Shown here: positions 5,195 to 33,452 of the stretch, one piece after another
Layout of the letters: the number at the start of each line of letters is the position of its first letter
Position numbering within the stretch: position 1 is the stretch's first letter
Position numbers and translations under genes: made by a program
Origin: Candidatus Parcubacteria bacterium
GTDB taxonomy: Bacteria > Patescibacteriota > Minisyncoccia > UBA6257 > JAPLYJ01
Reading direction: 5' to 3'
Assembly: GCA_026395655.1 (NCBI GenBank)
Contig: JAPLYJ010000064.1
Coordinates: 1-34,259 of the forward strand
Length of the DNA: 34,259 bases
Notes under the pieces: model-generated
What the model saw: only the letters and a program-made list of their open reading frames with translations
Told to the model about the DNA's origin: nothing
Databases searched by the model: none

Positions 5195-5992
5195 ATGAAA
5201 ATAAATTACAAACTGATTTTGATAATCATTGCTGTTTTAGCGATAAATGGATTATTTTATTATTGGGTTATTAGTGATATACCTAACCATAATATTGTAC
5301 CGACATCATCAACTAATACAGAATCCACAACATCTGATGCCATAGAAGAAGAAACATCTTTTTGTCTTAATCAAAAAATAGTTAACGAGAGTACTGATAT
5401 GTACGATATAAAATTTAGTTATCCTATCGTTTGTAATAAGAAAATCGATAATATGATAGAATCTTGGGCAACAGAGCAAATAGGATTATTTAAGAATAAT
5501 AATAAAAATGGCACTGAATCTACACAAACTGGGAAATGGATGAAAGCCAGTTTAAATGTTATGTATAGTTCTTCTTCTTTTTCGCCAAATATAGTTAGTT
5601 TTGCATTTTGGGATTCTGGTTATTTTATTAGAAAGACTATGACTTATGATTTGAAATTAAATAAAGAATTAGTTTTAAATGATATTATTAATGCAGATTT
5701 AGAAATCATTTCACAAAAAATTAGAGATAATATGCATTGGAAAATAACTGAATTGAGCATTGACGATAATGAAATATATGATTATATTGATCCTAAAATT
5801 GAAAGTATTGAGAGTATTAAATCTAAAATAAAAAATCAACAAGATTTTACAGTTAATGAAAAAGGTATCACTTTTTATTTTCCTGCTAGGAGTATATTAC
5901 CTAGTACGGCAGAAGTTTTTATACATTGGAACCAGATTAGAGAAATATCAAAGTCTCCATTTAATATTGCTTATTTAATGATTAATAAATAG
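5195..5992 (+). CDS. Paralogue of the preceding DUF4163/DUF3298-like membrane-anchored protein
   Basis: Same layout: TM anchor, FSYPIV...IDNMIESWATEQ, NIVSFAF, TYDLKLNKELVLNDI, QDFTVNEKGITFYFP. Collinear with 4432-5172. Confidence 0.45.
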   Translation: MKINYKLILIIIAVLAINGLFYYWVISDIPNHNIVPTSSTNTESTTSDAIEEETSFCLNQKIVNESTDMYDIKFSYPIVCNKKIDNMIESWATEQIGLFKNNNKNGTESTQTGKWMKASLNVMYSSSSFSPNIVSFAFWDSGYFIRKTMTYDLKLNKELVLNDIINADLEIISQKIRDNMHWKITELSIDDNEIYDYIDPKIESIESIKSKIKNQQDFTVNEKGITFYFPARSILPSTAEVFIHWNQIREISKSPFNIAYLMINK

Positions 5993-7945: not shown

Positions 7946-7975
7946 CTATTTTTTAAAATTTGATATAATAAAGAT

Positions 7976-20293: not shown

Positions 20294-21006
20294 ACGAAAA
20301 AAAAATAAGTTGGGTAAGATACCTTCTAATTTTCTTTCTAACTTTAGTTATCTTTGGTAGTGGTTTTTATTTAAGCAATACCATTGTAGAAAAAAAGATT
20401 ACCGCTATTTCTAAGTTACAACAAGGGTTAAGTATTGATATTTTGTCCATTGAAACTCAATTTTCCATTTTAACTCAAGTACCTTGTAAAAATCTTAATG
20501 AGTCTACTTTAGCTAAAGAGTTATATGACATTGCCTTAAAACTTTCTTCGGTAGGTAGCTCTTTAGGTGAAAACAATCCTGACTATTTAATTTTAAAAAA
20601 ATATTATTCCATCTTAGAAATCAAACATTGGTTGCTATTAAAAAAAGCAGCCAAAGAATGCCAAATGGATTTAGTGTCTGTAGCATATTTCTATGGGGAT
20701 AAGAAAAGTTGTCAGAATTGTGAAGATCAAGGTTACATTTTAACTGCCTTAAGAGAAAAATATCCTTTTTTACGTGTATATTCTTTTGATTACCTTTTGC
20801 CTTTAGTACCTTTAGAAACTATCAAATCCATCTATAATTTAAAAAATAATCTACCCGTTTTAGTTATTAACGATGATGTCTATTACGGTCTTAAATCACA
20901 AGAAGAATTAGAAACAATATTTAAAACATATATCAAATTAAACAAATTAGAACCTACAGAAACTAGTACCCCTACAACCAGTTCAACATCTACAAAGAAA
21001 AATTAA
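20284..21006 (+). CDS. Membrane-anchored hypothetical protein with a CxxC pair and a Thr/Ser-rich tail
   Basis: N-terminal TM helix. SCQNCEDQG. C-terminal PTETSTPTTSSTSTKKN. Overlaps the GT2 gene by 10 nt. Confidence 0.5.
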   Translation: MEVNEKKISWVRYLLIFFLTLVIFGSGFYLSNTIVEKKITAISKLQQGLSIDILSIETQFSILTQVPCKNLNESTLAKELYDIALKLSSVGSSLGENNPDYLILKKYYSILEIKHWLLLKKAAKECQMDLVSVAYFYGDKKSCQNCEDQGYILTALREKYPFLRVYSFDYLLPLVPLETIKSIYNLKNNLPVLVINDDVYYGLKSQEELETIFKTYIKLNKLEPTETSTPTTSSTSTKKN

Positions 21007-21011
21007 AAAAA

Positions 21012-21036
21012 CCATCAGATTTATGATGGCTTTTTT
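21012..21036. terminator. Bidirectional rho-independent terminator between convergent genes
   Basis: AAAAAAA CCATCA gattta TGATGG C TTTTTT. It has an A-run on one side and a T-run on the other. Confidence 0.75.
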
Positions 21037-21040
21037 AATG

Positions 21041-21604
21041 TTATTCGTTAGCTCTTTCTACATATTCTCCACTTTCCGTGTTTATTCTAATAACTTCTCC
21101 TTCTTTAATAAAAATAGGAACATTAACTTCTAACCCGGTTTCTAATTTTACTGTTTTAAAAGCTCCTCCCGAAGTATTACCTTTAATAGCTGGGGCTGCT
21201 TCTGTAATTTTTAATGAAACTTTTTTAGGTATGTTTAAACTCAATAACTCATCGTCTACGTATAATAAATCTATATCTGAGTTCTGTCTAAGATATATGA
21301 CTTTGTCTTTAACCGAATCAATGGGTAAAGATACCCTTTGATTGTCATTTTTAATTAAAAACACGGAATTTTGTCTGTCACTGTAAAGATAGCTAGCTTT
21401 CTTATATGTTAACTCTGATTCTTCAAATTTTTCACCAGATTTAAAAGTTCTTTCTACCACTTTTTCAGTTTTCATGTTTTTTAATTTGGTTCTGAAAAAA
21501 GCTGAACCTTTACCGGGACTGACAAATTGAAAATCAACAATCACCCAAGGTTGATCCTCTATATTCAATATCATGCCTTTTGTAAAATCTGAAGTAGAAA
21601 TCAT
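21041..21604 (-). CDS. efp: Elongation factor P
   Basis: MISTSDFTKGMIL...WVIVDFQFVSPGKGSAFFRTKLKN (conserved modified-Lys loop). 187 aa. Confidence 0.92.
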   Translation of the reverse strand: MISTSDFTKGMILNIEDQPWVIVDFQFVSPGKGSAFFRTKLKNMKTEKVVERTFKSGEKFEESELTYKKASYLYSDRQNSVFLIKNDNQRVSLPIDSVKDKVIYLRQNSDIDLLYVDDELLSLNIPKKVSLKITEAAPAIKGNTSGGAFKTVKLETGLEVNVPIFIKEGEVIRINTESGEYVERANE

Positions 21605-21611
21605 ATATAAA

Positions 21612-22646
21612 TTATTTAAAGATTTGTTTAGCTGGGAACATCAATAAATCGTTGATATCATTAATGTTTAATATTAACATTTGTAATCTATCTACGCCTA
21701 GAGCTATCCCACCAGAATCAGGCATTTTTGATTTTAAAGCATTAATGAAGTCATTGTCAATGGGAATGATTTTTTTGTTTAACTTTTCTCTGACATCTTG
21801 TTCTTCTTTGAAACGTTTGTATTGTTCTTTGTAGTCTGTTAATTCTGAAAAAGCATTAGCTAATTCCATACCACCAATATATGCTTCAAACCTTTCAGCG
21901 TAAAAGCTTTTTTTATTTTTTCTTTTAGCTAAAGAAGCTTGGTGCAGGGGATATTCATATATGATCATAGGTCTATCTTTAGGTAACCTAGGCTCTATAG
22001 CATTTAAAAATACCTTGTAAAAAACATCATCCCAATTGTCTTGGATATCTATTGTAAAATCTTTTTGGATAGCTAATTTTTTAAAATTTTTCAAATTCTT
22101 ACATTGATCTAAATCTAAATGAGCGTATTTTTTAAAAGCTTGTTTGACAGTCATCTTAGGCCAAGGCAAGCTTAAATCAATTTTGTTATTTTCGTATACA
22201 AGATATTTAGATTTATTGATTTTTTTGTTAACTTCAAAAACCAATTGTTCTAGATCTAACATTATTTGATAATAGTTTGAATGACTACGATACCATTCTA
22301 ACATGGTAAATTCTGGATTATGATTTGGTCCAAAGCTTTCATCTGATCTAAAAACTCTAGCTAGCTCAAATACCTTATCAAACCCAGCACAAAGCATTTT
22401 TTTTAAAGAATATTCCGGGGAAGTGATTAAGTACCCTAAATACGATTTACCTTTTTCATCATAAAATTCAGTTTGAAAAGGATTTAAATATGGTTCTTGC
22501 CCAGCACATTCAACCAGAATTGGAGTTTGAGCTTCTAAGAACCCTCTCACCTTAAAAAACGATCTAATGTAATCATTAATCTCAGCTCTCTTTTTTTGCA
22601 CAGAGGTAAGCTTAGGATCTTTTTTAATTTTTTCCCAATTTTGCAT
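21612..22646 (-). CDS. epmA: EF-P beta-lysine ligase (EpmA/GenX/PoxA), class II LysRS paralogue without an anticodon-binding domain
   Basis: FLEAQTPIL, ITSPEYSLKKML, VFELARVFRSDE, NPEFTMLEWY, ANAFSEL, GIALGVDRL. 344 aa. Adjacent to efp. Confidence 0.85.
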   Translation of the reverse strand: MQNWEKIKKDPKLTSVQKKRAEINDYIRSFFKVRGFLEAQTPILVECAGQEPYLNPFQTEFYDEKGKSYLGYLITSPEYSLKKMLCAGFDKVFELARVFRSDESFGPNHNPEFTMLEWYRSHSNYYQIMLDLEQLVFEVNKKINKSKYLVYENNKIDLSLPWPKMTVKQAFKKYAHLDLDQCKNLKNFKKLAIQKDFTIDIQDNWDDVFYKVFLNAIEPRLPKDRPMIIYEYPLHQASLAKRKNKKSFYAERFEAYIGGMELANAFSELTDYKEQYKRFKEEQDVREKLNKKIIPIDNDFINALKSKMPDSGGIALGVDRLQMLILNINDINDLLMFPAKQIFK

Positions 22647-22825
22647 GTTAGATGTTTAATTGTTAAACATTGTAGCATTTTTTTGTATGTTTTGTCATTC
22701 TTTCTGCCATTGACAAAAATGGTATAACTTGTTAAGGTATTTAATAAAAAGTACATTGAAAATATATTTTCCCTCATAAACCCTGAATTCGCAATAAAAT
22801 GTGACAGGTAGAGGCAGGAGGAAAG

Positions 22826-23461
22826 ATGTACCAATATTGTGATAAGTTAGCGCCGGCAGGGAGGTATCCTTGCCTTTACCTTGCCAAGGGTGGCGAGGTA
22901 AAAAAATTTAAAGGAGAAAATATTTCAGATTTTTGCTGTATTGCTACAGAGCAGTACAGCAAAAATGGTAAGTGGTCTAGCACCACTTACCAACTGGAGC
23001 TCTCTCCAGGTGTACGCCCTCTCTATTTTCTCTCCCCGATGCATGGGACATGGGGAGATGACCTCAAATCATGGGGGGAAGTAGTTGAGAAACTCAGTCT
23101 TCCGGTTGATGTCGCAAAAGCGATAATTGGGACTGAGTTCAAGACGACTGCAAATCGCCTCGACAAACTTGAAGAGTTTGCCTTGGCGACCGAGACCGAA
23201 GAAGTCACGACGGAAACTGTCATTATCTCCTTTGGATCGCCCTCTAACCGGGCGATTAGAGAAGGGTATTGGGAGGAACCCAAATCCTCACAGACGAGTA
23301 ACGGTCAAACCGTTACTGTAGCACCGGGCGTGGATGCCGATTGGGGTAATCCTTCGGTTGTGGAACCGGAAGGTGCGAAAGTTATCTCCTCCCGGCACGT
23401 TCCAGGGATGCACGGCGGATATTGGACAGTAGAAGTGATTGTTCCAATCCTCGCCGCGTAA
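22826..23461 (+). CDS. Hypothetical protein (211 aa) in a second G+C-richer, SD-bearing stand-alone cassette
   Basis: Strong SD gcAGGAGGaaagATG. Composition differs from the flanks. Followed by a strong terminator. No motif recognised. Confidence 0.6.
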   Translation: MYQYCDKLAPAGRYPCLYLAKGGEVKKFKGENISDFCCIATEQYSKNGKWSSTTYQLELSPGVRPLYFLSPMHGTWGDDLKSWGEVVEKLSLPVDVAKAIIGTEFKTTANRLDKLEEFALATETEEVTTETVIISFGSPSNRAIREGYWEEPKSSQTSNGQTVTVAPGVDADWGNPSVVEPEGAKVISSRHVPGMHGGYWTVEVIVPILAA

Positions 23462-23657: not shown

Positions 23658-25385
23658 ATGGACGGGAAAAAGATTATATCAGGGATGCCATCAATGTCTC
23701 CAAAAACACCAGAGGCAATGGAGCAACCAAAAGAAATTGAAAAAAAGTTTTTAATTGAAACCTTGCCTGATAATTTAGAAGATTATCCTTCTGAAGAAAT
23801 TATGCAAGGATATATTGCTATTACCGACGATGGTACGGAAGTTCGTTTACGCAAAAAAGGTGATATGTATTTTCAAACAATTAAAAGTGGGAATGGAAAA
23901 ACAAGAACAGAATCTGAAATTGAGATAACAGAAGAACAATTTAATATACTTTGGAAAACAACGGTTGGTAAAAGATTAGAAAAAAAGAGATATAAAATTC
24001 CTCATGCAAATGGAGTGATTGAATTAGATATCTATGGCGAAGGCTTAGAAGGTCTTGTAACAGCTGAAATAGAGTTTCCATCCGAAGAGGAAAGTGATGC
24101 GTTTGTTGTCCCAACTTGGTTTGGCGAAGAAGTAACAGAAGACAAAAGATATAAAAATCAAAAATTAGTATCTAGTGGTATGCCTGAAGAAGAGAATTTA
24201 GAAATATTAGATATCCCTGAATATAATTTAGAAGATGGCATAGAAAAAATAGTATCTCTTATTAATGAAAAATTATCCTCACAAACAGGTCCTGTTTTGA
24301 TTGAAATTGCAGGGGGTTCGGCTTCTGGCAAAACAAGCGCTGTCTCTCGGAAAATAAAAGAAATTTTTGGTGATGAAGCAATTATTTTTTCAATGGATGA
24401 TTACTATCGCGGAAAAACATTTATGAACAGCGAAGCAGAAAAAGGGAATAATCTAAATTGGGATCAACCAGAAGCTCTTAATTTAGAACTATTGCAAGAA
24501 CATTTAAAAAATTTAAAAAGCGGAGAGCAAATTGAAAAACCAGTATATGATATGAAAACTAGCGAACCCATAGATACAGAGATAATTCAACCTAACAGAG
24601 TTATTATCGTAGAAGGTCTATTCGCCCTTAATGATATCATCTCAGGAGAGGGTGATATTAAAGTATTTGTTGATATTGGTACGCATGGAAGGATTTTAAG
24701 AAGACTTTTGCGTGATATAGAGAGAACGGGTCAAAAGCCTGCTGATATTTTAAGGTATTTTGCTGAGGTAGTAGAGCCAATGCATGAAAAGTATATTCAA
24801 AACACGAAAAAGAACGCTAACATCATTGTAGATAATGAATATAGTCCAAAAGTAGAAGCTCAAAAGTCTGGCTTACATGAAATTCAATTAAAATTTAAAA
24901 TTGAATTAGATGCAGAAACTTTACGCAAGCTTGGCGCAGAAAGATTAAGTTCAACTACTCAAGTTGATTATTATTACAATCCTAAGGACAGAAATTTGAT
25001 TGAAACGAATGAGATTTTAAGAATTCGCCAAGAAGGGGATCACAAAATCTTAACTTATAAAGGTCCGAGGATGGAATCGGAATATAGGAAAAGACCAAAA
25101 TTTGAATTTGAAATTGATGAAGAAACAAATGAAAAATTCTTATCAATTTATGGTGACCAGATAAAAGAGATTAGAAAAGAAAGAATTTTATATGAATTAG
25201 AGGGAATAATATTTTCCATAGATTCAGTCATGAAAATAGAAGATGGGAAAGAAATAGATTTAGGCAAATTTATTGAGATTAGATCTACTAATAAAGAAAT
25301 AAATGATGAAAAAATAAAAGATGTAATATCAAAGCTTGGTCTGTCTTTACCGGATGGTATCAAAGAGTCGTATTTTGAAATGTAA
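23658..25385 (+). CDS. Triple-domain protein: CYTH (triphosphate tunnel metalloenzyme), uridine-kinase/PRK-family P-loop kinase, then a second CYTH (CyaB-like)
   Basis: CYTH1: EIEKKFL (ExExK), EVRLRKKG, ESEIEI, RYKI, ELDIY, AEIEF. Kinase: IAGGSASGKTS, SMDDYYRG, NWDQPEALN, VIIVEGLFAL, RRLLRDI. CYTH2: HEIQLKFKI, ILRIRQEG, LTYKGP, FEFEI. Confidence 0.8.
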   Translation: MDGKKIISGMPSMSPKTPEAMEQPKEIEKKFLIETLPDNLEDYPSEEIMQGYIAITDDGTEVRLRKKGDMYFQTIKSGNGKTRTESEIEITEEQFNILWKTTVGKRLEKKRYKIPHANGVIELDIYGEGLEGLVTAEIEFPSEEESDAFVVPTWFGEEVTEDKRYKNQKLVSSGMPEEENLEILDIPEYNLEDGIEKIVSLINEKLSSQTGPVLIEIAGGSASGKTSAVSRKIKEIFGDEAIIFSMDDYYRGKTFMNSEAEKGNNLNWDQPEALNLELLQEHLKNLKSGEQIEKPVYDMKTSEPIDTEIIQPNRVIIVEGLFALNDIISGEGDIKVFVDIGTHGRILRRLLRDIERTGQKPADILRYFAEVVEPMHEKYIQNTKKNANIIVDNEYSPKVEAQKSGLHEIQLKFKIELDAETLRKLGAERLSSTTQVDYYYNPKDRNLIETNEILRIRQEGDHKILTYKGPRMESEYRKRPKFEFEIDEETNEKFLSIYGDQIKEIRKERILYELEGIIFSIDSVMKIEDGKEIDLGKFIEIRSTNKEINDEKIKDVISKLGLSLPDGIKESYFEM

Positions 25386-25410
25386 TTTATTAATTAAAAA
25401 AACAAAAAAA

Positions 25411-26271
25411 ATGAATCAAAACAATTTTGTATCTGGAATGCCTCAGATGCCTCAAGAAAGCAAAGAGAGCGAACCAAAAATTGCGAAATTATCAGTTAAT
25501 GATTTTGCTGAAAAAATTGGGATTCAGCCCGATCAGCAAGGTCGTGTTACTTTTGCTCCAGAGCATGATAGGTTAGCATATGAATACGCTGAGAAATTTG
25601 CTCGCGACAATAAAGCAGAAAGAGTTATTATAGATGGTATTGCTTCTCCTGGAGTGATAGCTAGTTTTTTACATGGTATGCACCCAGCAGAAGGTTATTT
25701 AACCTATATGTCAAAAGACGCAGAAGGTAAAATGACAAAAGGTGAGACTAAAGTTTTAGAACCATTACCTCAAGGCGAAGGACAAGGACCAGAAGGTTTT
25801 ACATGGGTAAAAAAAGAAACCGAGGATTATACCTTAGTGGAATTTAATCTTGCTGGAGATTTTAAGATAGAAGATTTAGATAAAGTTATTCCTCCTGATG
25901 TTAATCCTGCAAAACCAGTGTTAATTTCCGGTCGTGGTCCTCTTTATCTAACTCATACAATTGCTGCTGGGTACAGGCATTATAAAGGCATTCCAGGGGT
26001 TGGTTTTTATCAGCCAGCAAGTAAATTCGGACCAGCTAAAACTGAAGTTGGTGTTTCTCACAATGAAGAGTTACCTTTAGGATTGAATTTTGGTGAACCA
26101 TCTGAAATTGGCACAGCTAAAGAGTTACATGAAAAACGAATTAAAGAGGGATTATCTGAAATAAAAAAGGGTAAAATTGTTTCTGTAGAAACAAATGATA
26201 AAATCATAAAATTTACTTTAGATAGCGGTGAAACATACAGTTTATCTGTTCGCGAGGTAACAAAAGAATAA
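25411..26271 (+). CDS. Csx3-like protein (possible tandem/pseudo-dimeric Csx3 fold), 286 aa
   Basis: YTLVEFNL...KPVLISGRGPLYLTHTIAAGYRH...VGFYQP...VGVSHNEE is collinear with my recollection of A. fulgidus Csx3 (FTLIHFEI...GVVISGRGPIWLHCFLAHKYHH...VAVYDPRLG...VVQSHSE). An upstream segment RVIIDGIASPGVIASFLHGMHP looks like a degenerate second copy. The ATG at 25411 is preferred over the alternative start at 25336. Confidence 0.55.
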   Translation: MNQNNFVSGMPQMPQESKESEPKIAKLSVNDFAEKIGIQPDQQGRVTFAPEHDRLAYEYAEKFARDNKAERVIIDGIASPGVIASFLHGMHPAEGYLTYMSKDAEGKMTKGETKVLEPLPQGEGQGPEGFTWVKKETEDYTLVEFNLAGDFKIEDLDKVIPPDVNPAKPVLISGRGPLYLTHTIAAGYRHYKGIPGVGFYQPASKFGPAKTEVGVSHNEELPLGLNFGEPSEIGTAKELHEKRIKEGLSEIKKGKIVSVETNDKIIKFTLDSGETYSLSVREVTKE

Positions 26272-29300: not shown

Positions 29301-29621
29301 GCCGTAGATGACGAAACCGATGAAGGTGATCCCTGCATATATTTAGAAGATATTGCAGTGTTAGATGAAGCCCAGGGTCAAGGATTGGGTTGGGAGATGC
29401 TTAAAGAATTAGTTAATAAGTTAAAAATTAAAGCACAAAAAAACAAAAAACCAATATTGCTAGATATGCATTTAAGAAAAAATTCCCAGGGATTATTACA
29501 AAAACACAAAGAAGATTTAGAAGAGATGGGGGTAAGATTAACAGAAGAAGCATTAGAACCTAATTATTATGATACAAATGAAGATGCGTTGTATCAGATT
29601 TATCAAATTCAAATAGATTAA
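26358..29621 (+). CDS. Large multidomain protein (1087 aa): N-terminal array of about 34-aa helical repeats, a coiled-coil-like middle, a Cys/Trp-rich domain and a C-terminal GNAT N-acetyltransferase
   Basis: Repeats F(N/K)LPxEIxQxAxKQxxIxxL...I(D/N)xAIxIxD x about 8. GNAT motif A IYLEDIAVLDEAQGQGLGWEMLKELV at roughly aa 995-1020. Confidence 0.8.
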   Translation: MSEQINLSKGKEKKETILIPEQQVIKNYINEVLVADNKLDLPVVIISSPEAQEIVKQKLITCFKNNNINDAIKINDTFKLPKEIIQEAVKQGIIYHLRGHYIYNAFEISNAFNLPPKIVQEVTKQALINYFEYGYIESAIEITEIFNLPDEIIFSLEVQQAAAQPFISKFKYGSLDDAIKINDTFKLPKEIIQETAKQAFIVWFCNHRIDDVIYDISIAQYAFNLPKTIAQDAPKQGYIECLKSGLIDAAIEIKDICKLSLSKEIISDPEVQKGIEEGFINYLHNNQIDIAIKIKDEFNLPDEIVQKAVEQVVIKHLREHQVNIAIKIKDKFNLYISPQKIIDQIPKLVDIIEQISQLAPPFKMQTEKSSELVIGLCRFINKPDYLINLLKEKLYLIDAIMSNPRFGSRLLLKYPEFDEMSKENIEKLFLTKQKILEQNPDIDPESLEFRQLMQEELKTFKNNPEIMEEIEKQGINLEEWLNHSETSYFNLSSKGSEISFSEKIRTPIDRIKETIDSYAHTIKSVLKEYILELKKHEIALENDESVKEQITKMEGALEQAQAEGNDTKIKGIERGLLTQRERLNNPKKGILWDKLMGDIEAFQGLKNDCFDAQKKLIEAEDKLTGALAGKAPSGKGVLEIKQKIAQAKEELRNKFNVLERRIENFKINLPKLLSPCLGQERSEALIQEIDQAVAEQFYHFELDRTVLANMFSERNDKETEQLESRPMSIFVWARNPDIDLYQGDYSPCCICIDSYDATESTIADYNTDLGIQIVNIWDEAKNEPVTAAWCWLGQNENGEKALVIDNIESNVLFSTNFSEQLSKELLDYIINYAKKIGVDKVILGVDYSDLPSASKLLELKWDNNEYEKIGGSNREYGYYLESEGDIIKLIWDRKEDETIKQPKEARKQKETIKFENISVTNLTEENFDEIRQLEAKIYQDTGLAQGSGLIENIKSDNGLEYSLIIRGKQPDQEEKIIGYIVAVDDETDEGDPCIYLEDIAVLDEAQGQGLGWEMLKELVNKLKIKAQKNKKPILLDMHLRKNSQGLLQKHKEDLEEMGVRLTEEALEPNYYDTNEDALYQIYQIQID
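26466..27390 (+). repeat. Intragenic array of about 8 degenerate 34-codon repeats. Two segments 321 nt apart are nearly identical at the DNA level.
   Basis: gatgctattaaaattaatgatacatttaagctaccaaaggaaataat is identical at 26565-26611 and 26886-26932 (both encode DAIKINDTFKLPKEII). Confidence 0.85.
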
Positions 29622-29637
29622 GATGTTTTACCACCTA

Positions 29638-29666
29638 TTGACAAATCTTTAAGAATATGCATAATA
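29638..29666 (+). promoter_or_regulatory. Consensus sigma70-type promoter P1, 17 nt after the stop of the 1087-aa gene
   Basis: TTGACA (29638-29643), 17 nt, ATAATA (29661-29666). Confidence 0.6.
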
Positions 29667-29671
29667 ACAAA

Positions 29672-29976
29672 TAGAACATTGAGATTAGTTTTTTAAAAAT
29701 GCTTTGGATGATTGCTGACTGTTATTTAGCTACTTAGAGATAGGTGATTAAATAACAGCCAGCAACATCGGCTGACACCTCGCCCTAGGTGGAAAGGCAC
29801 CCCTAGGAACGAAAGGAGACGCCTCCGTATGGTTCCATACCCTGCAGGTGTTCCCCCTTAGCATTTTTTTAAGGCGACGACACCGCCTTATTCATCCCCG
29901 CCCAGTCTGGTGTCGAGACTAGGGCTTATAGAAAAAAATTTGGTAAGTCTCAGCCGAAATATGACTGAGACTTACC
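29672..29976 (+). ncRNA. Candidate structured RNA A1 (about 300 nt), unknown class
   Basis: No long ORF. Contains a 17-bp AT-rich hairpin (29712-29765), a CCTAGG hairpin, a 10-codon mini-ORF (29829-29861), an AAGGCG/CGCCTT hairpin (29871-29889), a hairpin with a GGUGUCG loop (29901-29924) and a terminal 12-bp hairpin (29942-29976). Confidence 0.45.
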
Positions 29977-29981
29977 ACCAT

Positions 29982-30010
29982 TTGACAAATTCTGATAGAT
30001 ATGCTATACT
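29982..30010 (+). promoter_or_regulatory. Consensus sigma70-type promoter P2
   Basis: TTGACA (29982-29987), 17 nt, TATACT (30005-30010). Confidence 0.6.
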
Positions 30011-30015
30011 AAGTG

Positions 30016-30206
30016 AGTAATTGAATAGAGTTAGGTTTTTAAGCTAGTTTGTCCCCAAAGCTTCCAGAACTTTACAATTTAAAAAGTATACATTAAGGAG
30101 AGGCCGCCCGAGCTGGGGCGGTAATACAAATCAGCTAAAACGGCTAAGCGAAGTATCTTTAGGTTAATTTTTAATCTTCTCCGGATATTTCGCTTAGCCG
30201 TTTTTT
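30016..30206 (+). ncRNA. Candidate small RNA B (about 190 nt) ending in a long intrinsic terminator
   Basis: No ORF after its AAGGAGAGG motif. Contains a CCGCCC gagct GGGCGG hairpin. The terminator CGGCTAAGCGAA...TTCGCTTAGCCG (30141-30200, extendable to about 18 bp) is followed by TTTTTT. Confidence 0.45.
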
Positions 30207-30752
30207 AAACGGTTAACAGCACCTTAACATATTGTTCAAAATCATCTGCCATTCACTTTTTAAGGAGAGAGTGGCTACCTTAATAGGTAGTAACAGGAGA
30301 GAGTCCAAGGAGAGAGAATGGATTATAGATAATTTTGAATGAAGCCCAAACCAAATTAGCGAGTTAGAGAATTAAATTAAAAGGGCAAAAATATTTAATT
30401 CTTCAAATACCAAATATTGGTTAAAAAATAAACTCGCTGCTCCTAATTTAGCGGTAAAACTGCGGTTAGGACTGCTGCAATTAAGATTAACCCCCTTAAT
30501 TGGTCAGCAGGCCTTAGATTTGCTTGATACAAATTAAGAAAATTTAAGGCCTGCTAATTCTCAGCAGGAGAAAGGTGGTGGTGCCGATGATCGCATCGGG
30601 CATCCCGCCGTAACAAATCAAGGACGGCACCGTCCTCTCTATCCGAGAAGGGTTGACACATCAGTCTTGGTGCCGAGATTGATGGAAAAACGGTTTATGG
30701 GGTAAGTTTACCGAGACTTCGAGAGAAATAAACTCTCGGCTAAACTTACCCC
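30207..30752 (+). ncRNA. Hairpin-dense non-coding stretch including RNA A2, the 3'-module paralogue of A1
   Basis: Three AGGAGAGAG copies (30263-30316). A multibranch unit closed by GCGAGTT/AACTCGC. A perfect 10-bp GCAGGCCTTA/TAAGGCCTGC stem. A mini-ORF at 30587-30613. An AGGACG/CGTCCT hairpin (30621-30636). A GGUGCCG-loop hairpin (30659-30684). A terminal hairpin at 30699-30752. Confidence 0.4.
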
Positions 30753-30843
30753 CTCACATTCAGATTATAAATTAAAAATAATTTGTAATTTGAAACATGA
30801 GGATAGAGTTCTTTTAAAAATAAAAAATCGCTTCTAGCTATTT

Positions 30844-30892
30844 CTGGCTGCTGTTTAGGTATTTAATATTTAGATATTTGAATAGCAGTCAG
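30844..30892 (+). promoter_or_regulatory. Conserved 14-bp leader hairpin (copy 1)
   Basis: CTGGCTGCTGTTTA ...21 nt... TGAATAGCAGTCAG with three G-U pairs. The paralogue at 31800-31848 differs only on the 3' arm, and pairing is kept. Confidence 0.6.
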
Positions 30893-30947
30893 AACGACCC
30901 TCAGAAGTCCTGACCGTAGTATAGCAGGCCGAGGAAGAAGGAGAAAC

Positions 30948-31217
30948 ATGCAATGCACGAAGGAGTGGAAAACCCAGGATGTTATTACACGCGGGGAACG
31001 CGTAACCTGGTGGGAGGCAAACCACTACCGGGTAATTGTCCCGGTATTCGAAAGTAGCAATGAGGAATTTGAGTTTCTCATTGCCCACAAGCTAGAACAT
31101 GCGGACCAGTACGGTGATTCTTCCGGAGATTCTTCCTTCTCAGATTTCTTTTGGGACAGGATAGAGAGCTTAGCAGAGACACTCGGGGTGCCTGCCCCGC
31201 AAAGGTCGTCTCGCTAA
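30948..31217 (+). CDS. Possible small protein (89 aa) in module copy 1. Coding status uncertain because the segment is hairpin-rich.
   Basis: SD gaAGGAGaaacATG. Protein-like sequence with a GDSSGDSS tandem repeat. It also contains perfect inverted repeats (31026-31046, 31057-31084, 31184-31199). Confidence 0.35.
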   Translation: MQCTKEWKTQDVITRGERVTWWEANHYRVIVPVFESSNEEFEFLIAHKLEHADQYGDSSGDSSFSDFFWDRIESLAETLGVPAPQRSSR

Positions 31218-31268
31218 GTCTACGGAATAATAGTTGGAGAGGTGTCCCGAATCCTCTAAAAAATCGGG

Positions 31269-31294
31269 GGCAGAGCGATGCCGATCGCTCTGCC
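31269..31294 (+). promoter_or_regulatory. Conserved GC-rich hairpin downstream of the module ORF (copy 1)
   Basis: GGCAGAGCGAT gccg ATCGCTCTGCC. The paralogue at 32112-32135 (AGCAGAGCGA tgcg TCGTTCTGCT) carries a G-C to A-T compensatory pair. Confidence 0.6.
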
Positions 31295-31327
31295 AAATGG
31301 CCCTTCGGGGTTTATTCGGGAGGTTCT

Positions 31328-31363
31328 GGAAAGTTTCCTCGGTAAAAACTTTCCAATCTTTTT
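31328..31363 (+). terminator. Rho-independent terminator (module copy 1, first unit)
   Basis: GGAAAGTTT cctcggtaa AAACTTTCC then AATCTTTTT. Confidence 0.7.
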
Positions 31364-31441
31364 CAGCTCATAAACAAAATTTGTGGTCTGAAAGAGGAGA
31401 AATATTAGTTCTTTACAATTTTTAATATTTCCTTATTCTAA

Positions 31442-31496
31442 TTTTGTGTTGCTAATTTAGTAATTTATTTTAGATTATTAAATCGGCAACACAAAA
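31442..31496 (+). promoter_or_regulatory. Conserved leader hairpin immediately upstream of the SD of the small TM ORF (copy 1)
   Basis: TTTTGTGTTGC ...33 nt... GCAACACAAAA. Paralogue at 32267-32321. Confidence 0.6.
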
Positions 31497-31517
31497 AAGA
31501 AAGGAGAAAAGAGAAAA

Positions 31518-31667
31518 ATGAGTCCAGAAGATACGGGACCTTTTTGGGGCCCACTGGTTATCTACGGTCCCTTGTTGTTGGGGCTCGCAATTGTAGCGGT
31601 TATATCCCGTTACAATGAATGGAAAAAGGAGATCACTAATCTCCTAGAAAGGAGAAAAAGAAAATAA
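31518..31667 (+). CDS. Small membrane peptide (49 aa): one TM helix plus a basic tail
   Basis: SD aAAGGAGaaaagagaaaaATG. Sequence MSPEDTGPFWGPLVIYGPLLLGLAIVAVISRYNEWKKEITNLLERRKRK. Below the ORF-track size cut-off. Confidence 0.5.
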   Translation: MSPEDTGPFWGPLVIYGPLLLGLAIVAVISRYNEWKKEITNLLERRKRK

Positions 31668-31679
31668 GAAAAGGCGGAC

Positions 31680-31716
31680 GGCAGGTTCCGCTAAGGGTTA
31701 TAACCTGCCTCTTTTT
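31680..31716 (+). terminator. Rho-independent terminator (end of module copy 1)
   Basis: GGCAGGTT ...14 nt... AACCTGCC then TCTTTTT. Confidence 0.75.
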
Positions 31717-31799
31717 CAGATTATAAATTAAAAAAAATTTGTAATTTGAAACATGAGGTTAGAGTTCTTTTAAAAATTAAAAAACGCTTCTAGTTATTT

Positions 31800-31848
31800 C
31801 TGGCTGCTGTTTAGATATTTAATATTTAGATATTTAAATAGCGGCCAG
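31800..31848 (+). promoter_or_regulatory. Conserved 14-bp leader hairpin (copy 2)
   Basis: CTGGCTGCTGTTTA ...21 nt... TAAATAGCGGCCAG. Confidence 0.6.
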
Positions 31849-31898
31849 GAATTGGTCGACTAATTCTTACCTAAGAAGGTAAGAGAAAGGAGTATGGG

Positions 31899-32090
31899 AT
31901 GGGGATCCCAGTTGGTTATACAAAACACCTAATACTGTGTTTTGTGGAACAGGCGCAGGATCAGGCGCCTGTCACGGGCACAGGCGACTCCACGTGGTAT
32001 GTGGAGTCGCTATGTAATATCATCCGCCGTTTATTGGCGGATGAGCCAGATGAGCCATTCCTAGCAGTAGTTAATCAAGGGGTGCCCTAA
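31899..32090 (+). CDS. Possible small protein (63 aa). More likely a multi-hairpin RNA, or dual-use.
   Basis: SD aAAGGAGtatgggATG, but 31865-32043 consists of six consecutive perfect hairpins. The start codon sits inside one of them. Confidence 0.25.
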   Translation: MGIPVGYTKHLILCFVEQAQDQAPVTGTGDSTWYVESLCNIIRRLLADEPDEPFLAVVNQGVP

Positions 32091-32111
32091 ATCCTCTTTA
32101 AAAAAAATCGG

Positions 32112-32135
32112 AGCAGAGCGATGCGTCGTTCTGCT
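32112..32135 (+). promoter_or_regulatory. Conserved GC-rich hairpin downstream of the module ORF (copy 2)
   Basis: AGCAGAGCGA tgcg TCGTTCTGCT, homologous to 31269-31294. Confidence 0.55.
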
Positions 32136-32163
32136 AGGTTGTGCCCTGCGGGGTATAGATTCG

Positions 32164-32203
32164 CAGGGAGGCGTGTTGGTTACACGAACTCCCTGTTCTT
32201 TTT
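32164..32203 (+). terminator. Rho-independent terminator (module copy 2, first unit)
   Basis: CAGGGAG ...18 nt with inner GTGT/ACAC... CTCCCTG then TTCTTTTT. Same position as 31328-31363 but a different sequence. Confidence 0.7.
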
Positions 32204-32266
32204 CAGCTCATAAACAGAATTTGTGATCTGAAAGAGGAGAAAGTATTAGTTTTTTTCTTTTTCTAA

Positions 32267-32321
32267 TTTTGTGTTGCTAATTTAGTAATTTACTTTAGAT
32301 TATTAAATCGACAACACAAAA
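32267..32321 (+). promoter_or_regulatory. Conserved leader hairpin upstream of the small TM ORF (copy 2)
   Basis: TTTTGTGTTG ... CAACACAAAA. Confidence 0.55.
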
Positions 32322-32338
32322 AAAGAGGAGGCATTAAA

Positions 32339-32482
32339 ATGACCATCGAACAATTAGCACGGCTCCTACTTTTAGTAGGAGTGATCATGATTGCAGCTTA
32401 GATCATGGCTGCAATCACCTGGAAGAAGTATTCCAGGTGGTGGATCTGGAAGTATAAAATAGAAAGGAGGGAAAAAAGATAA
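32339..32482 (+). pseudogene. Paralogue of the small TM peptide interrupted by an in-frame TAG (32399-32401)
   Basis: SD agAGGAGGcattaaaATG. Sequence MTIEQLARLLLLVGVIMIAA*IMAAITWKKYSRWWIWKYKIERREKR. It shares TM + WKK + ERR(K/E)KR architecture with 31518-31667. The TAG lies in the loop of a perfect 10-bp hairpin, TGATTGCAGC/GCTGCAATCA. Confidence 0.35.
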
Positions 32483-32528
32483 AAAAAGCGGATGGCAGGT
32501 TTCGCTAACGGTTATACCCTACCTCTTT

Positions 32529-32641
32529 TTCAGATTATAAATTAAAAATAATTTGTAGTTTGAAAGAAGGGGATATTAGCTCTTTAAAAAACATTTTTGC
32601 AAGGAATACAATTATATTTTAGATGTAGTTGTATTCCTCGC
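32529..32641 (+). repeat. Third, partial module copy (box retained, different leader hairpin)
   Basis: 32529-32565 matches the box at 30759-30795 and 31715-31751. This is followed by the hairpin GCAAGGAATACAA...TTGTATTCCTCGC (32599-32641). Confidence 0.7.
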
Positions 32642-32689
32642 AAAAAGATAGCCACTAAAAACTATACGTGGCAGAAAGGAGGTAATAAA

Positions 32690-33076
32690 ATGAAAGAATT
32701 GGAAGATGCTTTCAACTTTTTGGATAAAAAAATCCAAGAAGTAAAAGATGAGGAAGAGGCAACAAAAAAACGTGCTGCCATTTTTCCCGAAACTGCCCTG
32801 AAGTTGTTACAAAGGGCAACTAGAGAGACAGTGCATATTCTTCTGCCTCACTCCACAGGCAAAATGTGCCTAATCTTTTCACCTCCCATCGAAAAGATTC
32901 AAAAATGGTGGCTTTGCATATATCATGGAGAGCCATTATCGTTTGTTTTTGACGACGACGGATGGGCCAATAACATGCTCGTCAAAGAATGCCTCCAGGC
33001 GTTTATTGATAGGGCTGTTGAGCCCAAAGTATTTCTGGCTTTTCCCAAAGAGCCAGAAATGTTTCCTCAAGTTTAA
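32690..33076 (+). CDS. Hypothetical protein (128 aa)
   Basis: SD aAAGGAGGtaataaaATG at the internal Met of ORF 32597-33076. Protein-like sequence (MKELEDAFNFLDKKIQEVKDEEE...). No motif recognised. Confidence 0.55.
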   Translation: MKELEDAFNFLDKKIQEVKDEEEATKKRAAIFPETALKLLQRATRETVHILLPHSTGKMCLIFSPPIEKIQKWWLCIYHGEPLSFVFDDDGWANNMLVKECLQAFIDRAVEPKVFLAFPKEPEMFPQV

Positions 33077-33167
33077 CTTTAACGTTAGCTCTTTCTGATG
33101 CGAGGCAGAAAGGAAAAAAATGGGGGAGGGATAAATAACATTCCTCCCCAATTTCTCATAAAAAAAA

Positions 33168-33195
33168 TTGACAGTTAATCTCAGTTTGATAATAT
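33168..33195 (+). promoter_or_regulatory. Consensus sigma70-type promoter for the rod-like RNA
   Basis: TTGACA (33168-33173), 16 nt, TAATAT (33190-33195). Confidence 0.55.
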
Positions 33196-33202
33196 TAAAG
33201 TA

Positions 33203-33323
33203 CAAACAAGAACCGCTTAGAGGCGGACTAAAGTGAAGAAGTGATGTCCATCTTTCGGGGTGGAGGAATCTCTCTCCTTACATCATTAATTCATATTTGG
33301 TCTGCCCTTAAGCGGTTTTTTTT
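33203..33323 (+). ncRNA. Candidate rod-like small RNA (about 115 nt), unknown class
   Basis: Long closing helix AACCGCTTAGAGGCGGAC / GTCTGCCCTTAAGCGGTT. Inner GTGATGT/ACATCAT helix. Apical hairpin with a UUCG loop. Followed by TTTTTTT. No ORF. Confidence 0.45.
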
Positions 33324-33342
33324 ATTTTTTAAAAAATATTTC

Positions 33343-33370
33343 TTGCCAAAATATGTTAAAAGTGTATAAT
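33343..33370 (+). promoter_or_regulatory. Promoter of tRNA-Lys
   Basis: TTGCCA, 16 nt, TATAAT (33365-33370). The tRNA 5' end lies about 10 nt downstream. Confidence 0.55.
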
Positions 33371-33379
33371 ATTTTTTAT

Positions 33380-33452
33380 GCCTCCATAGCTCAATTGGTA
33401 GAGCAATAGCCTTTTAAGCTAGTGGTTGCAGGTCCGAGTCCTGCTGGAGGCA
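33380..33452 (+). tRNA. tRNA-Lys (anticodon UUU), 73 nt, no encoded CCA
   Basis: Cloverleaf folded by hand: GCCTCCA TA GCTC AATTGGTA GAGC A ATAGC CTTTTAA GCTAG TGGTT GCAGG TCCGAGT CCTGC TGGAGGC A. Confidence 0.88.

Follow-up and report, generated by a model that had tools for sequence, protein, structure and literature searches.

What separates the short genes in a stretch of a Patescibacteria chromosome, and why is the same non-coding sequence repeated between coding segments that do not resemble each other? The question arose from the window, the complete 34,259 nt stretch of Candidatus Parcubacteria DNA analysed here (contig JAPLYJ010000064.1), in which the original prediction described a tandem composite module of 2.1 copies at 30759–32641, with conserved regulatory and structural parts and diverging ORF-like cores. 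We confirmed this observation, whereas the accompanying interpretation was only partly supported: selection on RNA structure, rather than a mere recent duplication, was borne out, but divergence of the ORF cores from a common ancestor and a stand-alone box placed after terminators were not. Our preferred reading, to which we assign a probability of roughly 0.5, is that the locus is a polycistronic operon of acquired orphan genes, punctuated by RNA processing or stability modules, and as such it looks like an undescribed way of packaging and expressing acquired genes.

The conserved box was detected five times, all on the + strand and all at the positions originally given (30759–30795, 31362–31393, 31715–31751, 32202–32233 and 32529–32565), while no box was found in 100 dinucleotide-preserving shuffles. 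Repeat finding and alignment confirmed the tandem structure, and showed that copies 1 and 2 form a sharp mosaic. The head (30759–30893 versus 31715–31849) is identical at 125/135 positions (93%) without gaps, the second box with its leader (31355–31517 versus 32195–32338) is 80% identical overall, which reflects about 92% identity interrupted by a 16 nt indel, and the blocks 31240–31294 versus 32078–32135 and 31641–31714 versus 32456–32528 are 74% and 80% identical, respectively. In contrast, the ORF segments (30894–31239 versus 31850–32077) are 42% identical, the same as shuffled sequence (40 ± 2%), and the two proteins encoded there gave no BLASTP alignment. The ORF cores are therefore unrelated sequences set in a conserved scaffold, rather than diverged copies. 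The third, partial copy shares only the first hairpin of the junction, the box and about 25 nt behind it (87%), and is unrelated beyond that point (47%).

The box is not a free-standing element, but is the upper stem of a longer hairpin of 50–60 nt (H2), of which the lower stem lies outside the original box coordinates and pairs a pyrimidine tract with a purine tract. H2 abuts a GC hairpin (H1) directly upstream, and is followed by a leader hairpin of 22–30 bp (H3) in front of the next ribosome binding site. The array is preceded by a promoter at 29982–30010 (+) with the sequence TTGACA-17-TATACT (11/12 matches, with TG), of which a near-identical copy lies at 29638–29665, and which by eye closely resembles the promoter at the head of the array in locus L007 of another Patescibacteria genome (TTGACAAATCTGAAATATATGCTATAGT). 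This promoter is followed by a long, hairpin-rich non-coding leader (30017–30698), which has no ORF of 40 aa or more, contains RAGGAGAGAG motifs at 30262 and 30307, and is strongly folded (MFE −262.8 kcal/mol for 30017–30760, z = −12.2).

All features of the array are on the + strand, and the H2 hairpins were scored on both strands with a covariance model. Junction 1 consists of a long GC-rich H1 without a subsequent U-tract (30699–30753), H2 at 30748–30806 (55.7 bits on + and 24.5 on −), and H3 at 30842–30894 (24–25 bp, 6 G-U pairs), and leads into gene A (30948–31217, 89 aa, preceded by GAAGGAG). Gene A is followed by the conserved 3′ block at 31240–31294, which holds a GC hairpin (31269–31294) that is preceded by an A-run and was flagged as terminator-like on the − strand. 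Junction 2 consists of H1 at 31328–31356, H2 at 31351–31404 (lower stem TCTTTT / AAAGAG, 64.0 bits on + and 19.3 on −), and H3 at 31432–31505 (about 32 bp), and precedes gene B (31518–31667, 49 aa, preceded by AAAGGAG), with one predicted membrane helix and a basic tail. Junction 3 has H1 at 31679–31709 (GGCAGGTT...AACCTGCC) followed by TCTTTTT, H2 at 31704–31762 (56.8 bits on + and 26.0 on −) and H3 at 31796–31852 (27 bp), and precedes gene A′ (31899–32090, 63 aa, preceded by AAAGGAG), an orphan unrelated to gene A. The second copy of the 3′ block (32078–32135, with GC hairpin 32112–32135) is followed by junction 4, with H1 at 32163–32198, H2 at 32191–32244 (64.0 bits on + and 29.9 on −) and H3 at 32257–32331, in which CTTTTTCT pairs with AGAGGAGG, the Shine-Dalgarno sequence of gene B′ (32339–32482). 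This counterpart of gene B has an in-frame TAG at 32399–32401, and is a likely pseudogene or needs read-through. Junction 5 has a degenerate H1 (32487–32523), in which a G-to-A change breaks the stem seen at 31679–31709, H2 at 32518–32576 (lower stem CCTCTTTT / AGAAGGGG, 59.7 bits on + and 23.3 on −) and H3 at 32594–32646 (24 bp, 88% complementary), and precedes the fifth gene (32690–33076, 128 aa, preceded by AAAGGAGG). The array ends with a minimal pyrimidine/purine hairpin (CTCTTTCTG...CAGAAAGGA, 33087–33112), read directly from the sequence, and a terminator-like hairpin at 33123–33149.

The hairpins show the signature of selection on the sense strand. In the 19 named hairpins there were 47 G-U pairs against 3 A-C 1×1 mismatches on the + strand, where a strand-neutral palindrome would show roughly equal numbers, and most hairpins are far more stable on + than on −, such as the H3 of gene A (−29.5 versus −8.9 kcal/mol) and that of gene A′ (−33.3 versus −14.6 kcal/mol). 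The original prediction that the leader hairpin differs between copies at three positions, all on the 3′ arm, was corrected to five stem positions for the hairpin at 30842–30894, one on the 5′ arm and four on the 3′ arm, but all five are indeed swaps between G-U and Watson-Crick pairs, and simulation gave P = 0.001–0.017 for such complete preservation of pairing at realistic transition fractions. The predicted G-C to A-T double change in the GC hairpin was correct, and this hairpin also has a C-to-T change giving a G-U pair and a 2 nt loop deletion, while the hairpins at 31328 and 32164 do share position but not sequence, as originally described. Overall, the H2 model scored 51–69 bits on + and 15–39 bits on −, and in an alignment of 13 H2 sequences 82% of cells paired in register, against 56% or less when slid. 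This alignment contained 7 pairs and 16 cells with double changes, and although only 6 of 500 shuffles reached the cell count, 98 of 500 reached the pair count and 38 of 500 the covariation score, so that with 13 related sequences the alignment-wide covariation is modest. Since G-T wobbles would also be tolerated in a folded single DNA strand, a top-strand DNA hairpin is not strictly excluded.

Absence of the box from all relatives had been named beforehand as an outcome that would refute the prediction, but the box hairpin recurs in other Patescibacteria lineages with compensatory changes. H1-H2 junctions were found between unrelated, GC-rich orphan genes in locus L001 (Nomurabacteria) and in loci L007, L012, L013, L018, L027, L028 and L030 from relatives, whereas no convincing match was found outside the arrays in about 30 kb of the window or in 57 kb of loci from relatives, and the motif is absent from Rfam. 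The H2 termini look like short inverted repeats (CCTTTCTTTCAG ... CTGAAAGAAGGG) around a variable interior, and L021 and L007 differ by insertion or deletion of whole hairpin units in the array leader, which could indicate selfish palindromic repeats of the MITE or REP kind, conserved through recent spread rather than function. This is unlikely, as the elements were found only inside arrays, always on the coding strand, exactly one per gap and always abutting H1, as the mismatches show the G-U bias expected of RNA rather than strand-neutral decay, and as the same family is kept across distant lineages with compensatory changes.

The position of promoters and terminators also bears on the function of the junctions. 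The only + strand promoter-like sites in the window with 10/12 or more matches are at 29638, 29982, 33168 and 33343, with none between 30011 and 33167. The arrays L007/L019, L013 and L018 begin with one TTGACA-17-TAnAAT promoter, which in L013 lies upstream of the first H1-H2, and L018, the one array seen whole, ends with a single canonical terminator before the next gene's own promoter. This indicates that the junctions are intercistronic RNA, rather than per-gene promoter boxes. Alternatively, each junction may be a regulatory cassette, the direction taken by the original prediction, with H1 and its U-tract terminating the upstream gene and the box acting as an operator palindrome overlapping a weak promoter that has the TTGAAA of the 3′ arm as its −35, so that every small gene is its own transcription unit. 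Four of the five window junctions have 5 or more T in the 9 nt after H1, and H1 with TCTTTTT in these looks like an intrinsic terminator, while TTGAAA or CTGAAA in the 3′ arm of H2 is followed at 19–20 nt by TAAAAA or TACAAT in junctions 1, 2, 3 and 5 and in L018. However, the claim that each box sits right after a terminator U-tract fails for the first copy and for most relatives, with 2–4 T in the preceding 9 nt in 5 of the 8 boxes outside the window, and the tract after H1 is not U-rich in L007, L012, L013 and L018. Furthermore, the −35 to −10 spacing is 13–26 nt across family members, the −10-like hexamers mostly lack the conserved final T, none of these sites reached 10/12, and the loop between the box arms varies from 3 to about 45 nt, which does not fit a dimeric operator. 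Both arms of the box and the lower stem are also kept complementary through G-U and double changes, which would require the whole hairpin to be in one RNA, and we consider per-gene cassettes improbable.

Such cassettes would resemble the PeSL (promoter-early stem-loop) elements in the hyperplastic regions of T4-type phages (Arbiol et al. 2010, PMC2839356), which combine a stem-loop terminator with a promoter. Both are conserved non-coding cassettes of about 100 nt with a GC-rich stem-loop containing G-T pairs, both flank database-orphan ORFs in a hypervariable region, and in PeSLs, and by inference also here, the repeats provide homology for modular shuffling, giving replaced ORFs in a constant scaffold. 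PeSLs, however, each contain a strong σ70 promoter shown to be active, whereas no junction here has a good promoter and the array has one at its head. PeSLs are located in phage genomes rather than in bacterial chromosomes between housekeeping genes, have no sequence similarity to the junctions described here, and do not feature the two- or three-hairpin H1-H2-H3 layout or the pyrimidine/purine lower stem.

In sister arrays, self-cleaving ribozymes were predicted in the same gaps. L030 carries twister-P5 matches between H2 and the Shine-Dalgarno sequence at 7240–7297 (42.6 bits) and 7974–8028 (44.4 bits), above the gathering score of 37.6, while the twister match in L027 (5195–5250, 33.9 bits) and a hammerhead-like match in L028 (9019–9081) are below their gathering scores. 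No known ribozyme was detected in the window, where the best RAGATH match was RAGATH-19 at 30.9 bits against a gathering score of 85.6, and hence the ribozyme analogy is positional only. Neighbourhoods of twister and hammerhead ribozymes are the context from which pistol, hatchet, twister-sister and the RAGATH motifs were mined (PMC5737381), and the motif described here is a conserved structured RNA in such a neighbourhood, between small uncharacterised genes. The papers examined that mention these ribozymes give no description of such arrays in Patescibacteria. The junctions also resemble the intercistronic RNase III sites of phage T7 mRNAs and the transcribed palindromic repeats cut by RNase III in Neisseria (Correia elements), which are helices of about 20–30 bp with small internal loops between cistrons of a polycistronic RNA, are similar to one another within a genome, and leave a hairpin at the 3′ end of the upstream message. 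There is no sequence relationship with these, and the conserved pyrimidine/purine sequence and conserved U-G pair of the H2 lower stem suggest a more specific recognition than generic double-stranded RNA.

We propose that the region is the core of a roughly 3.2 kb single-promoter operon (29982–33149) of five short genes, in which H1 and H2 would cap and stabilise the upstream cistron and damp read-through, while the long H2 and H3 helices would be processing sites, most plausibly cut by a double-strand-specific RNase such as RNase III, releasing each cistron with its own defined 5′ end. The repeated modules may also supply homology for recombination, which would account for the 2.1 tandem copies and for unrelated ORFs in the same scaffold. 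We consider the anatomy, the selection on the sense strand, the intercistronic position, the recurrence in relatives and the foreign character of the genes to be demonstrated by the sequence comparisons, whereas co-transcription, cleavage or stabilisation as the biochemical role and recombination as the shuffling route are inferred from sequence alone. A translational switch cannot be the common function: the base of H3 buries the Shine-Dalgarno sequence of gene B (probability of being unpaired 0.08–0.12, versus 0.44 after shuffling) and gene B′ (0.11–0.12), but the mean over 30 cassettes was 0.42, and also 0.42 in shuffled controls.

The genes in the arrays are foreign in character to their host. 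GC3 of the cassettes is 0.40–0.57 (0.57 for gene A, 0.52 for A′ and 0.40 for the fifth gene) against 0.19–0.24 for host genes, set between AT-rich, strongly folded non-coding modules, and a Shine-Dalgarno motif precedes 30 of 33 cassette ORFs but only 8 of 65 host genes (Fisher P = 1e-14). There were no Pfam or PHROG hits, an exhaustive phmmer search with gene A found only itself and two weak matches to long repetitive proteins, and the only hit for the fifth gene among 5.8 billion proteins was itself. With one promoter, co-oriented promoterless orphan cassettes and a structured repeat between them, of which the stem base is more conserved than the variable top, the architecture is that of an integron array, including those lacking an integrase (CALINs), and cassette content differs completely between arrays at the same rpsP-trmD locus. 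In chromosomal integrons the repeats within one array are highly similar and species-specific, as the boxes are here. H1-H2 might thus fold in single-stranded DNA as the site at which a recombinase inserts and excises gene cassettes, but this is unlikely. No tyrosine recombinase or transposase was present in the Pfam results for 23 of the 27 window ORFs of 100 aa or more outside the array (ORFs at 20284–23461 excluded) or for the genes called around the arrays in L026–L028, L030 and L032, and the flanks of L007, L013 and L018, read from ORF translations only, show only housekeeping genes. No RYYYAAC...GTTRRRY core pair exists on either strand, the 5′ leaders are long, the best-folding strand is the coding strand whereas attC sites recombine as the bottom strand, and the conserved/variable breakpoints between copies 1 and 2 are located about 100 nt downstream of H2 and near the stop codon, rather than inside H2.

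Finally, the small membrane ORFs B and B′ could represent toxins of tandem type I toxin-antitoxin loci, which are commonly duplicated in tandem, held off by their structured 5′ leaders and an antisense RNA. The hydrophobic helix and basic tail of the 49 aa gene B product and its buried Shine-Dalgarno sequence fit this, and a weak, putative − strand promoter-like site in the H3 of gene B (only 8/12 matches), together with the GC hairpin 31269–31294, followed by a T-run on the − strand, could delimit an antisense RNA. This possibility is remote, since only two of the five genes fit and B′ carries an in-frame stop, while most cassettes in sister arrays are soluble proteins of 57–394 aa, and the same junction modules are located in front of genes that are not toxin-like.

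The box pattern TTCAGMTYATAAA-N(3-10)-ATTTGTRRTYTGAAA matched five times in the window, in each case exactly where the original prediction had placed it and always on the + strand, whereas no match occurred in 100 dinucleotide-preserving shuffles. Repeat finding and alignment confirmed a tandem structure with start-to-start spacings of 956 and 814 nt, and the predicted observation thus held, although some of its details needed correction. A global alignment of copies 1 and 2 showed a sharp mosaic rather than uniform divergence: the head (30759–30893 versus 31715–31849) was 93% identical without gaps, box 2 plus the leader (31355–31517 versus 32195–32338) was about 92% identical apart from a 16-nt indel, the 3′ block of the A unit (31240–31294 versus 32078–32135) was 74% identical, and the 3′ end of gene B plus H1 (31641–31714 versus 32456–32528) was 80% identical. 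In contrast, the ORF A segment (30894–31239 versus 31850–32077) was only 42% identical, compared with 40 ± 2% for shuffled sequence, and the two ORF A proteins gave no BLASTP alignment at all. The third copy shared only H1, the box and about 25 nt after it. The predicted leader hairpin at 30842–30894 differed from its copy at five stem positions rather than the three originally claimed, all being exchanges of G-U for Watson-Crick pairs or the reverse. The GC hairpin has the predicted G-C to A-T double change, but also a C-to-T change that gives a G-U pair, and the hairpins at 31328 and 32164 do share position but not sequence. The original interpretation was partly supported: selection on RNA structure is supported, but the ideas that the box is an operator placed after a terminator, and that the ORFs diverged from a common ancestor, are not.

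Folding of the box with its flanks showed that it is the upper stem of a longer hairpin (H2), of which the lower stem pairs the pyrimidine-rich bases just upstream of the box with the purine-rich bases just downstream, for example CCTCTTTT/AGAAGGGG and TCTTTT/AAAGAG, with CCTCA/TGAGG at the first copy. A GC-rich hairpin (H1) abuts H2 without a spacer, and a third, long and nearly perfect hairpin of 22–32 bp (H3) lies between H2 and the ribosome binding site of the next ORF, so that each unit reads H1 - H2 - H3 - Shine-Dalgarno - ORF. The boxes are 327–603 nt apart and the intervals hold ORFs led by Shine-Dalgarno sequences, which does not match a CRISPR array with repeats of 28–37 nt and unique spacers of about 30–40 nt; retron and diversity-generating retroelement readings were likewise dropped for lack of any defining feature. 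The whole interval 29622–33379 has no long ORF apart from the 128-aa fifth gene (listed as a 159-aa ORF from an upstream TTG), and is about twice as structured as coding sequence (-35 kcal/mol per 120 nt, against -16 to -19), while the 744 nt upstream of the first box fold with z = -12. Short upstream ORFs were also considered and rejected, as reading frames after the H2 purine tract were not consistent between members.

The 19 named hairpins hold 47 G-U pairs on the + strand but only 3 A-C 1x1 mismatches, whereas folding the minus strand gave 17 G-U pairs and 22 A-C mismatches. A DNA palindrome decaying without strand preference should give about equal numbers, and although some of the 19 hairpins are duplicates of one another, the bias survived their removal. 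The H3 hairpin of gene A folds at -29.5 kcal/mol on the + strand and -8.9 on the minus strand. In a simulation, five random stem substitutions all kept pairing with a probability of 0.001–0.017 for transition fractions of one third to two thirds, and of 0.11 if every change were a transition. A covariance model of H2 built from 12 sequences scored 51–69 bits on the + strand and 15–39 bits on the minus strand of the same sites. In an alignment of 13 sequences, 82% of cells paired in register, against 56% or less when the partner was slid by 1–3 columns, and seven pairs and 16 cells carried changes on both sides; six of 500 shuffles reached the cell count, but 98 of 500 reached the pair count and 38 of 500 the covariation score. 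This is modest covariation from a shallow alignment, but together with the G-U bias it supports a structure selected in the sense-strand transcript.

The window is a chromosomal fragment of a Patescibacteria (Parcubacteria-group) bacterium, encoding UvrABC, BipA and an [FeFe] hydrogenase, and its 1087-aa GNAT protein upstream of the array is 61% identical to a Falkowbacteria protein. Pattern scans of genome and metagenome collections recovered the same H1-H2 element in a Nomurabacteria MAG (locus L001), with three copies in a row, and in the metagenome contigs L007 (the same sequence as L019 and L021), L012, L013 and L018. A 313-aa cassette gene of L013 has more than 1000 uncharacterised homologues, and the contexts of some of these gave further arrays (L026–L028, L030 and L032). 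In L027, L028 and L030 the junctions keep the H1 plus pyrimidine/purine lower stem, often exactly CCTTTCTT...AAGAAGGG with a conserved U-G pair, while their interiors vary from about 30 to 110 nt. Other matches were set aside: L002–L006 are isolated single matches in other phyla or inside genes (L004 lies in a purH-like ORF), and L008–L011, L014–L017, L020 and L022 lack the flanking architecture and score low. Homologues of the GNAT protein were also fetched with their flanks (L023–L025), but gene order was not conserved and no convincing junction element was present. The elements found all lie in arrays on the coding strand, with nothing above noise in the other 30 kb of the window or in 57 kb of loci from relatives that lack arrays, and three pattern scans of IMG/VR viral contigs, for the box and for the lower stem, gave no match. 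Within these sequences this does not fit REP or MITE-type repeats, which are scattered in many copies through intergenic regions in both orientations, with target-site duplications for MITEs.

In L007/L019, L013 and L018 the array sits at the same place, after rnc-rpsP, with the downstream flank (the KH-protein gene and trmD) seen in L007 and L018, whereas L013 ends inside its array. Each of these arrays begins with one consensus promoter, TTGACA-17-TAnAAT, which in L013 lies about 70 nt upstream of the first H1-H2, and L018 ends with a canonical terminator carrying a long U-run, after which the KH gene has its own promoter. The cassette ORFs differ completely between these arrays. The same logic holds in the window, where the only + strand promoter-like sites of 10/12 or better are at 29638, 29982, 33168 and 33343, with none between 30011 and 33167, and where the 29982 promoter closely resembles that of L007 when compared by eye. 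H1 is present at every junction, and a U-rich tract follows it in four of the five window junctions, but this tract is U-poor in L007, L012, L013 and at the first window junction, which suggests that H1 is not generally a terminator. From sequence, we conclude that H1-H2 junctions are internal, transcribed, intercistronic elements of an operon. Weak promoters for each gene cannot be excluded, since TTGAAA in H2 lies 19–20 nt from TAAAAA or TACAAT in the window, but this reading fails for lack of good promoters, and the candidate -35/-10 pairs have spacers of 13–26 nt across the family. A single-stranded-DNA (Frpo-like) promoter was also considered and dropped, because the candidate -35 and -10 lie on opposite arms of the hairpin rather than along one stem. 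The lack of a σ70-type promoter of 10/12 or better at the window junctions likewise separates them from the PeSL regulatory cassettes of T4-type phages, although like these they flank orphan ORFs in a hypervariable region, set in a mosaic scaffold with different cassettes at the same locus in L007, L013 and L018.

Co-oriented promoterless cassettes behind one promoter are also a feature of integron arrays, and an integron-like role at the DNA level cannot be excluded, but this reading fails several defined tests. No recombinase domain was found with Pfam among the window ORFs scanned (which left out those at 20284–23461) or among the genes called around the arrays in L026–L028, L030 and L032, and none was noted in the flanks of L007, L013 and L018, which were read from ORF translations only; as the contigs are partial, a distant integrase cannot be excluded. 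No RYYYAAC and GTTRRRY core pair was present within 40–160 nt on either strand of 29600–33400, the base of H2 being CCTCTTTT/AAAGAGG or CCTTTCTT/AAGAAGGG. The coding strand is the one that folds better, rather than the bottom strand as in attC sites, and the mosaic breakpoints lie outside H2. Cassette boundaries could not be mapped from DNA homology, since similarity between arrays was confined to the coding part of one shared gene family. Hairpin modules are gained and lost as units within populations, since two samples of almost the same array (97% identical) differ by insertion or deletion of whole hairpin units in the leader (L021 130–271 versus L007 49–92), with one unit inserted into the loop of an existing hairpin.

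The two window ORFs searched for homologues, gene A and the fifth gene, have no detectable relatives: the fifth gene found only itself among 5.8 billion proteins, and gene A found only itself in an exhaustive phmmer search of 1.84 billion representatives, apart from two weak matches to long repetitive proteins. None of the four window ORFs scanned (A, B, A′ and the fifth gene) had a Pfam or PHROG hit, and the cassettes tested from relatives had no Pfam hit above the curated cut-off. In an all-against-all BLASTP of array ORFs, apart from near-identical copies of the same array (L007/L021), only the 313-aa family used to fetch the loci was shared, together with overlapping alternative-frame ORFs inside that gene, and no window ORF had a relative in any other array. 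The window ORFs still look like real genes, as GC2 is below GC1 in all four intact ORFs and position 1 is purine-rich (0.56–0.62), and they are foreign to the host, with a GC3 of 0.40–0.57 against 0.19–0.24 in host genes. Of 33 cassette ORFs across all arrays, 30 carry a Shine-Dalgarno motif, usually GAAAGGAG, compared with only 8 of 65 host genes in the same loci (window, L001, L007, L018, L028 and L030; Fisher P = 1e-14). The arrays are therefore strongly Shine-Dalgarno-led genes in genomes that largely do without such sites.

The one shared cassette family (L013 1672–2613, with homologues in L026–L032) is widespread (more than 1000 clusters), has no Pfam domain, and has conserved DHH and GGY motifs. 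Its structure is predicted with high confidence (pLDDT 88.5) and resembles the DHH-type phosphodiesterase NrN bound to SAM-AMP (Foldseek E = 4e-6), NrN being an enzyme that degrades SAM-AMP. The family stays near 60% GC (57–64%) in hosts whose fetched loci are 41–54% GC, and in one phage-like contig it sits next to an AcrVA2-like gene, behind its own promoter. At least part of the cargo therefore comes from mobile elements, and may be anti-defence, with this family a possible anti-defence enzyme.

Rfam searches of the window, using either gathering scores or E-values up to 5, found only the tRNA and none of the known self-cleaving ribozymes (twister, hammerhead, pistol, hatchet or HDV-like), while RAGATH-19 (RF03096) reached only 30.9 bits at 31590–31746, against a gathering score of 85.6. 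Sister arrays do carry ribozyme matches, located between a junction hairpin and the next gene. L030 has two type-P5 twister ribozymes above the gathering score of 37.6 bits, at 7240–7297 (42.6 bits) and 7974–8028 (44.4 bits), each between an H2 and the ribosome binding site of the next gene. L027 has a twister-like match at 5195–5250 with 33.9 bits, below that score, and L028 has a hammerhead-like sequence at 9019–9081, also below its gathering score, in which an A replaces the core G of GAAA. The slot that holds H3 in the window is thus filled by a self-cleaving RNA elsewhere, which is positional evidence that the transcripts are cut between cistrons. Bacterial self-cleaving ribozymes are known to cluster near particular gene classes, and such neighbourhoods have yielded new RNA motifs, including several ribozyme classes (PMC5737381), but a search of the literature at hand found no account of such arrays in Patescibacteria.

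Taken together, we favour RNA punctuation of a polycistronic orphan-gene operon, in which H1 and H2 would act as the 3′ cap and attenuator of the upstream cistron, and the long H2 and H3 helices would be processing sites, with RNase III as the most plausible enzyme; an rnc gene is present in relatives. The repeated modules would also serve as homology for recombination, which explains the tandem duplication and the unrelated ORFs in a constant scaffold, as proposed for PeSL cassettes (PMC2839356). The feature itself is real, non-random and conserved beyond this genome, but all statements on function, including processing, attenuation and the shuffling of cassettes, are inferred from sequence. 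A translational switch is not a general function: the ribosome binding site is buried for B, B′ and the fifth gene but open for A and A′, and over 30 cassettes it was no more buried than in shuffled leaders (0.42 versus 0.42, Wilcoxon P = 0.98). The closest known systems are PeSL cassettes, integron cassette arrays, ribozyme-associated gene neighbourhoods and intercistronic RNase III sites, but by their defining features the array is a member of none of these.

The H1-H2 junction is a conserved and structured RNA motif that is absent from Rfam and shares its niche with twister ribozymes. Patescibacteria have tiny genomes and live on other microbes, and how they acquire and express new genes is poorly understood; these arrays represent a recurring, recognisable type of locus, which in three sampled lineages sits in the rpsP-trmD ribosomal gene cluster, and their genes differ from the host in base composition and in how translation starts. 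If the junctions prove to be processing signals or exchange sites, they would define how foreign genes are made expressible and shuffled in a very large, uncultivated part of the bacterial tree, and the motif would offer a way to mine cargo genes, which may include anti-defence genes. A more far-reaching possibility, which we consider unlikely but which would be of high interest if true, is that Patescibacteria possess a dedicated platform for stockpiling acquired genes, comparable to an integron but without an integrase, consisting of a conserved head promoter followed by a growing and shrinking row of orphan genes taken from mobile elements. Each gene would be bracketed by the junction RNA and a leader module, either a hairpin or a twister ribozyme, and the junction would be a new RNA class (a specific processing signal or a small ribozyme-like element) that makes each foreign gene expressible in a host whose own genes largely lack Shine-Dalgarno sites. 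It would double as the homology or recognition site through which cassettes are exchanged, and part of the cargo would be anti-defence enzymes such as the NrN-like phosphodiesterase.

A small hydrophobic ORF with a structured leader hiding the ribosome binding site, as in type I toxin-antitoxin loci, was seen for B and B′ only (49 aa, with a probability of the Shine-Dalgarno sequence being unpaired of about 0.1). The second copy of this small membrane ORF (32339–32482) has an in-frame TAG at 32399–32401, inside a local palindrome, and is either a pseudogene or contains a read-through site. The conserved GC hairpin after the A-type ORFs (31269–31294 and 32112–32135) is followed on the minus strand by a T-run, scored as a borderline minus-strand terminator at 31294–31269, and a weak (8/12) minus-strand promoter-like site (TTGCCG-16-TAAATT) lies in the B leader hairpin; together these could delimit an antisense RNA of about 190 nt across box 2.

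The motif RAGGAGAGAG recurs in the promoter-proximal leaders of several arrays (window 30262–30271 and 30307–30316, L007 47–56, L027 3073–3082, and L032 7623–7632 and 7825–7834), with 3 matches in the window where 0.17 is expected. The two near-identical promoters at 29638 and 29982 bracket a GC-rich, strongly folded segment of about 300 nt (29638–29985, z = -7.7) without an Rfam match, which ends in a 15-bp hairpin preceded by an A-run and may be another structured RNA or a decayed cassette. Two genes upstream of the array, a 311-aa protein (25336–26271) has a weak but above-threshold match to the Csx3 (CRISPR ring-nuclease-like) domain (E = 3e-5), although no CRISPR array is present in the window. 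Finally, a consensus-like promoter (TTGACA-16-TAATAT, 33168–33195) is followed by a rod-like RNA of about 120 nt (33200–33322) ending in a terminator with a U-run, which folds at -54.9 kcal/mol (z = -7.8), has no Rfam match and lies just upstream of the tRNA-Lys promoter, and is probably an unannotated small RNA gene.
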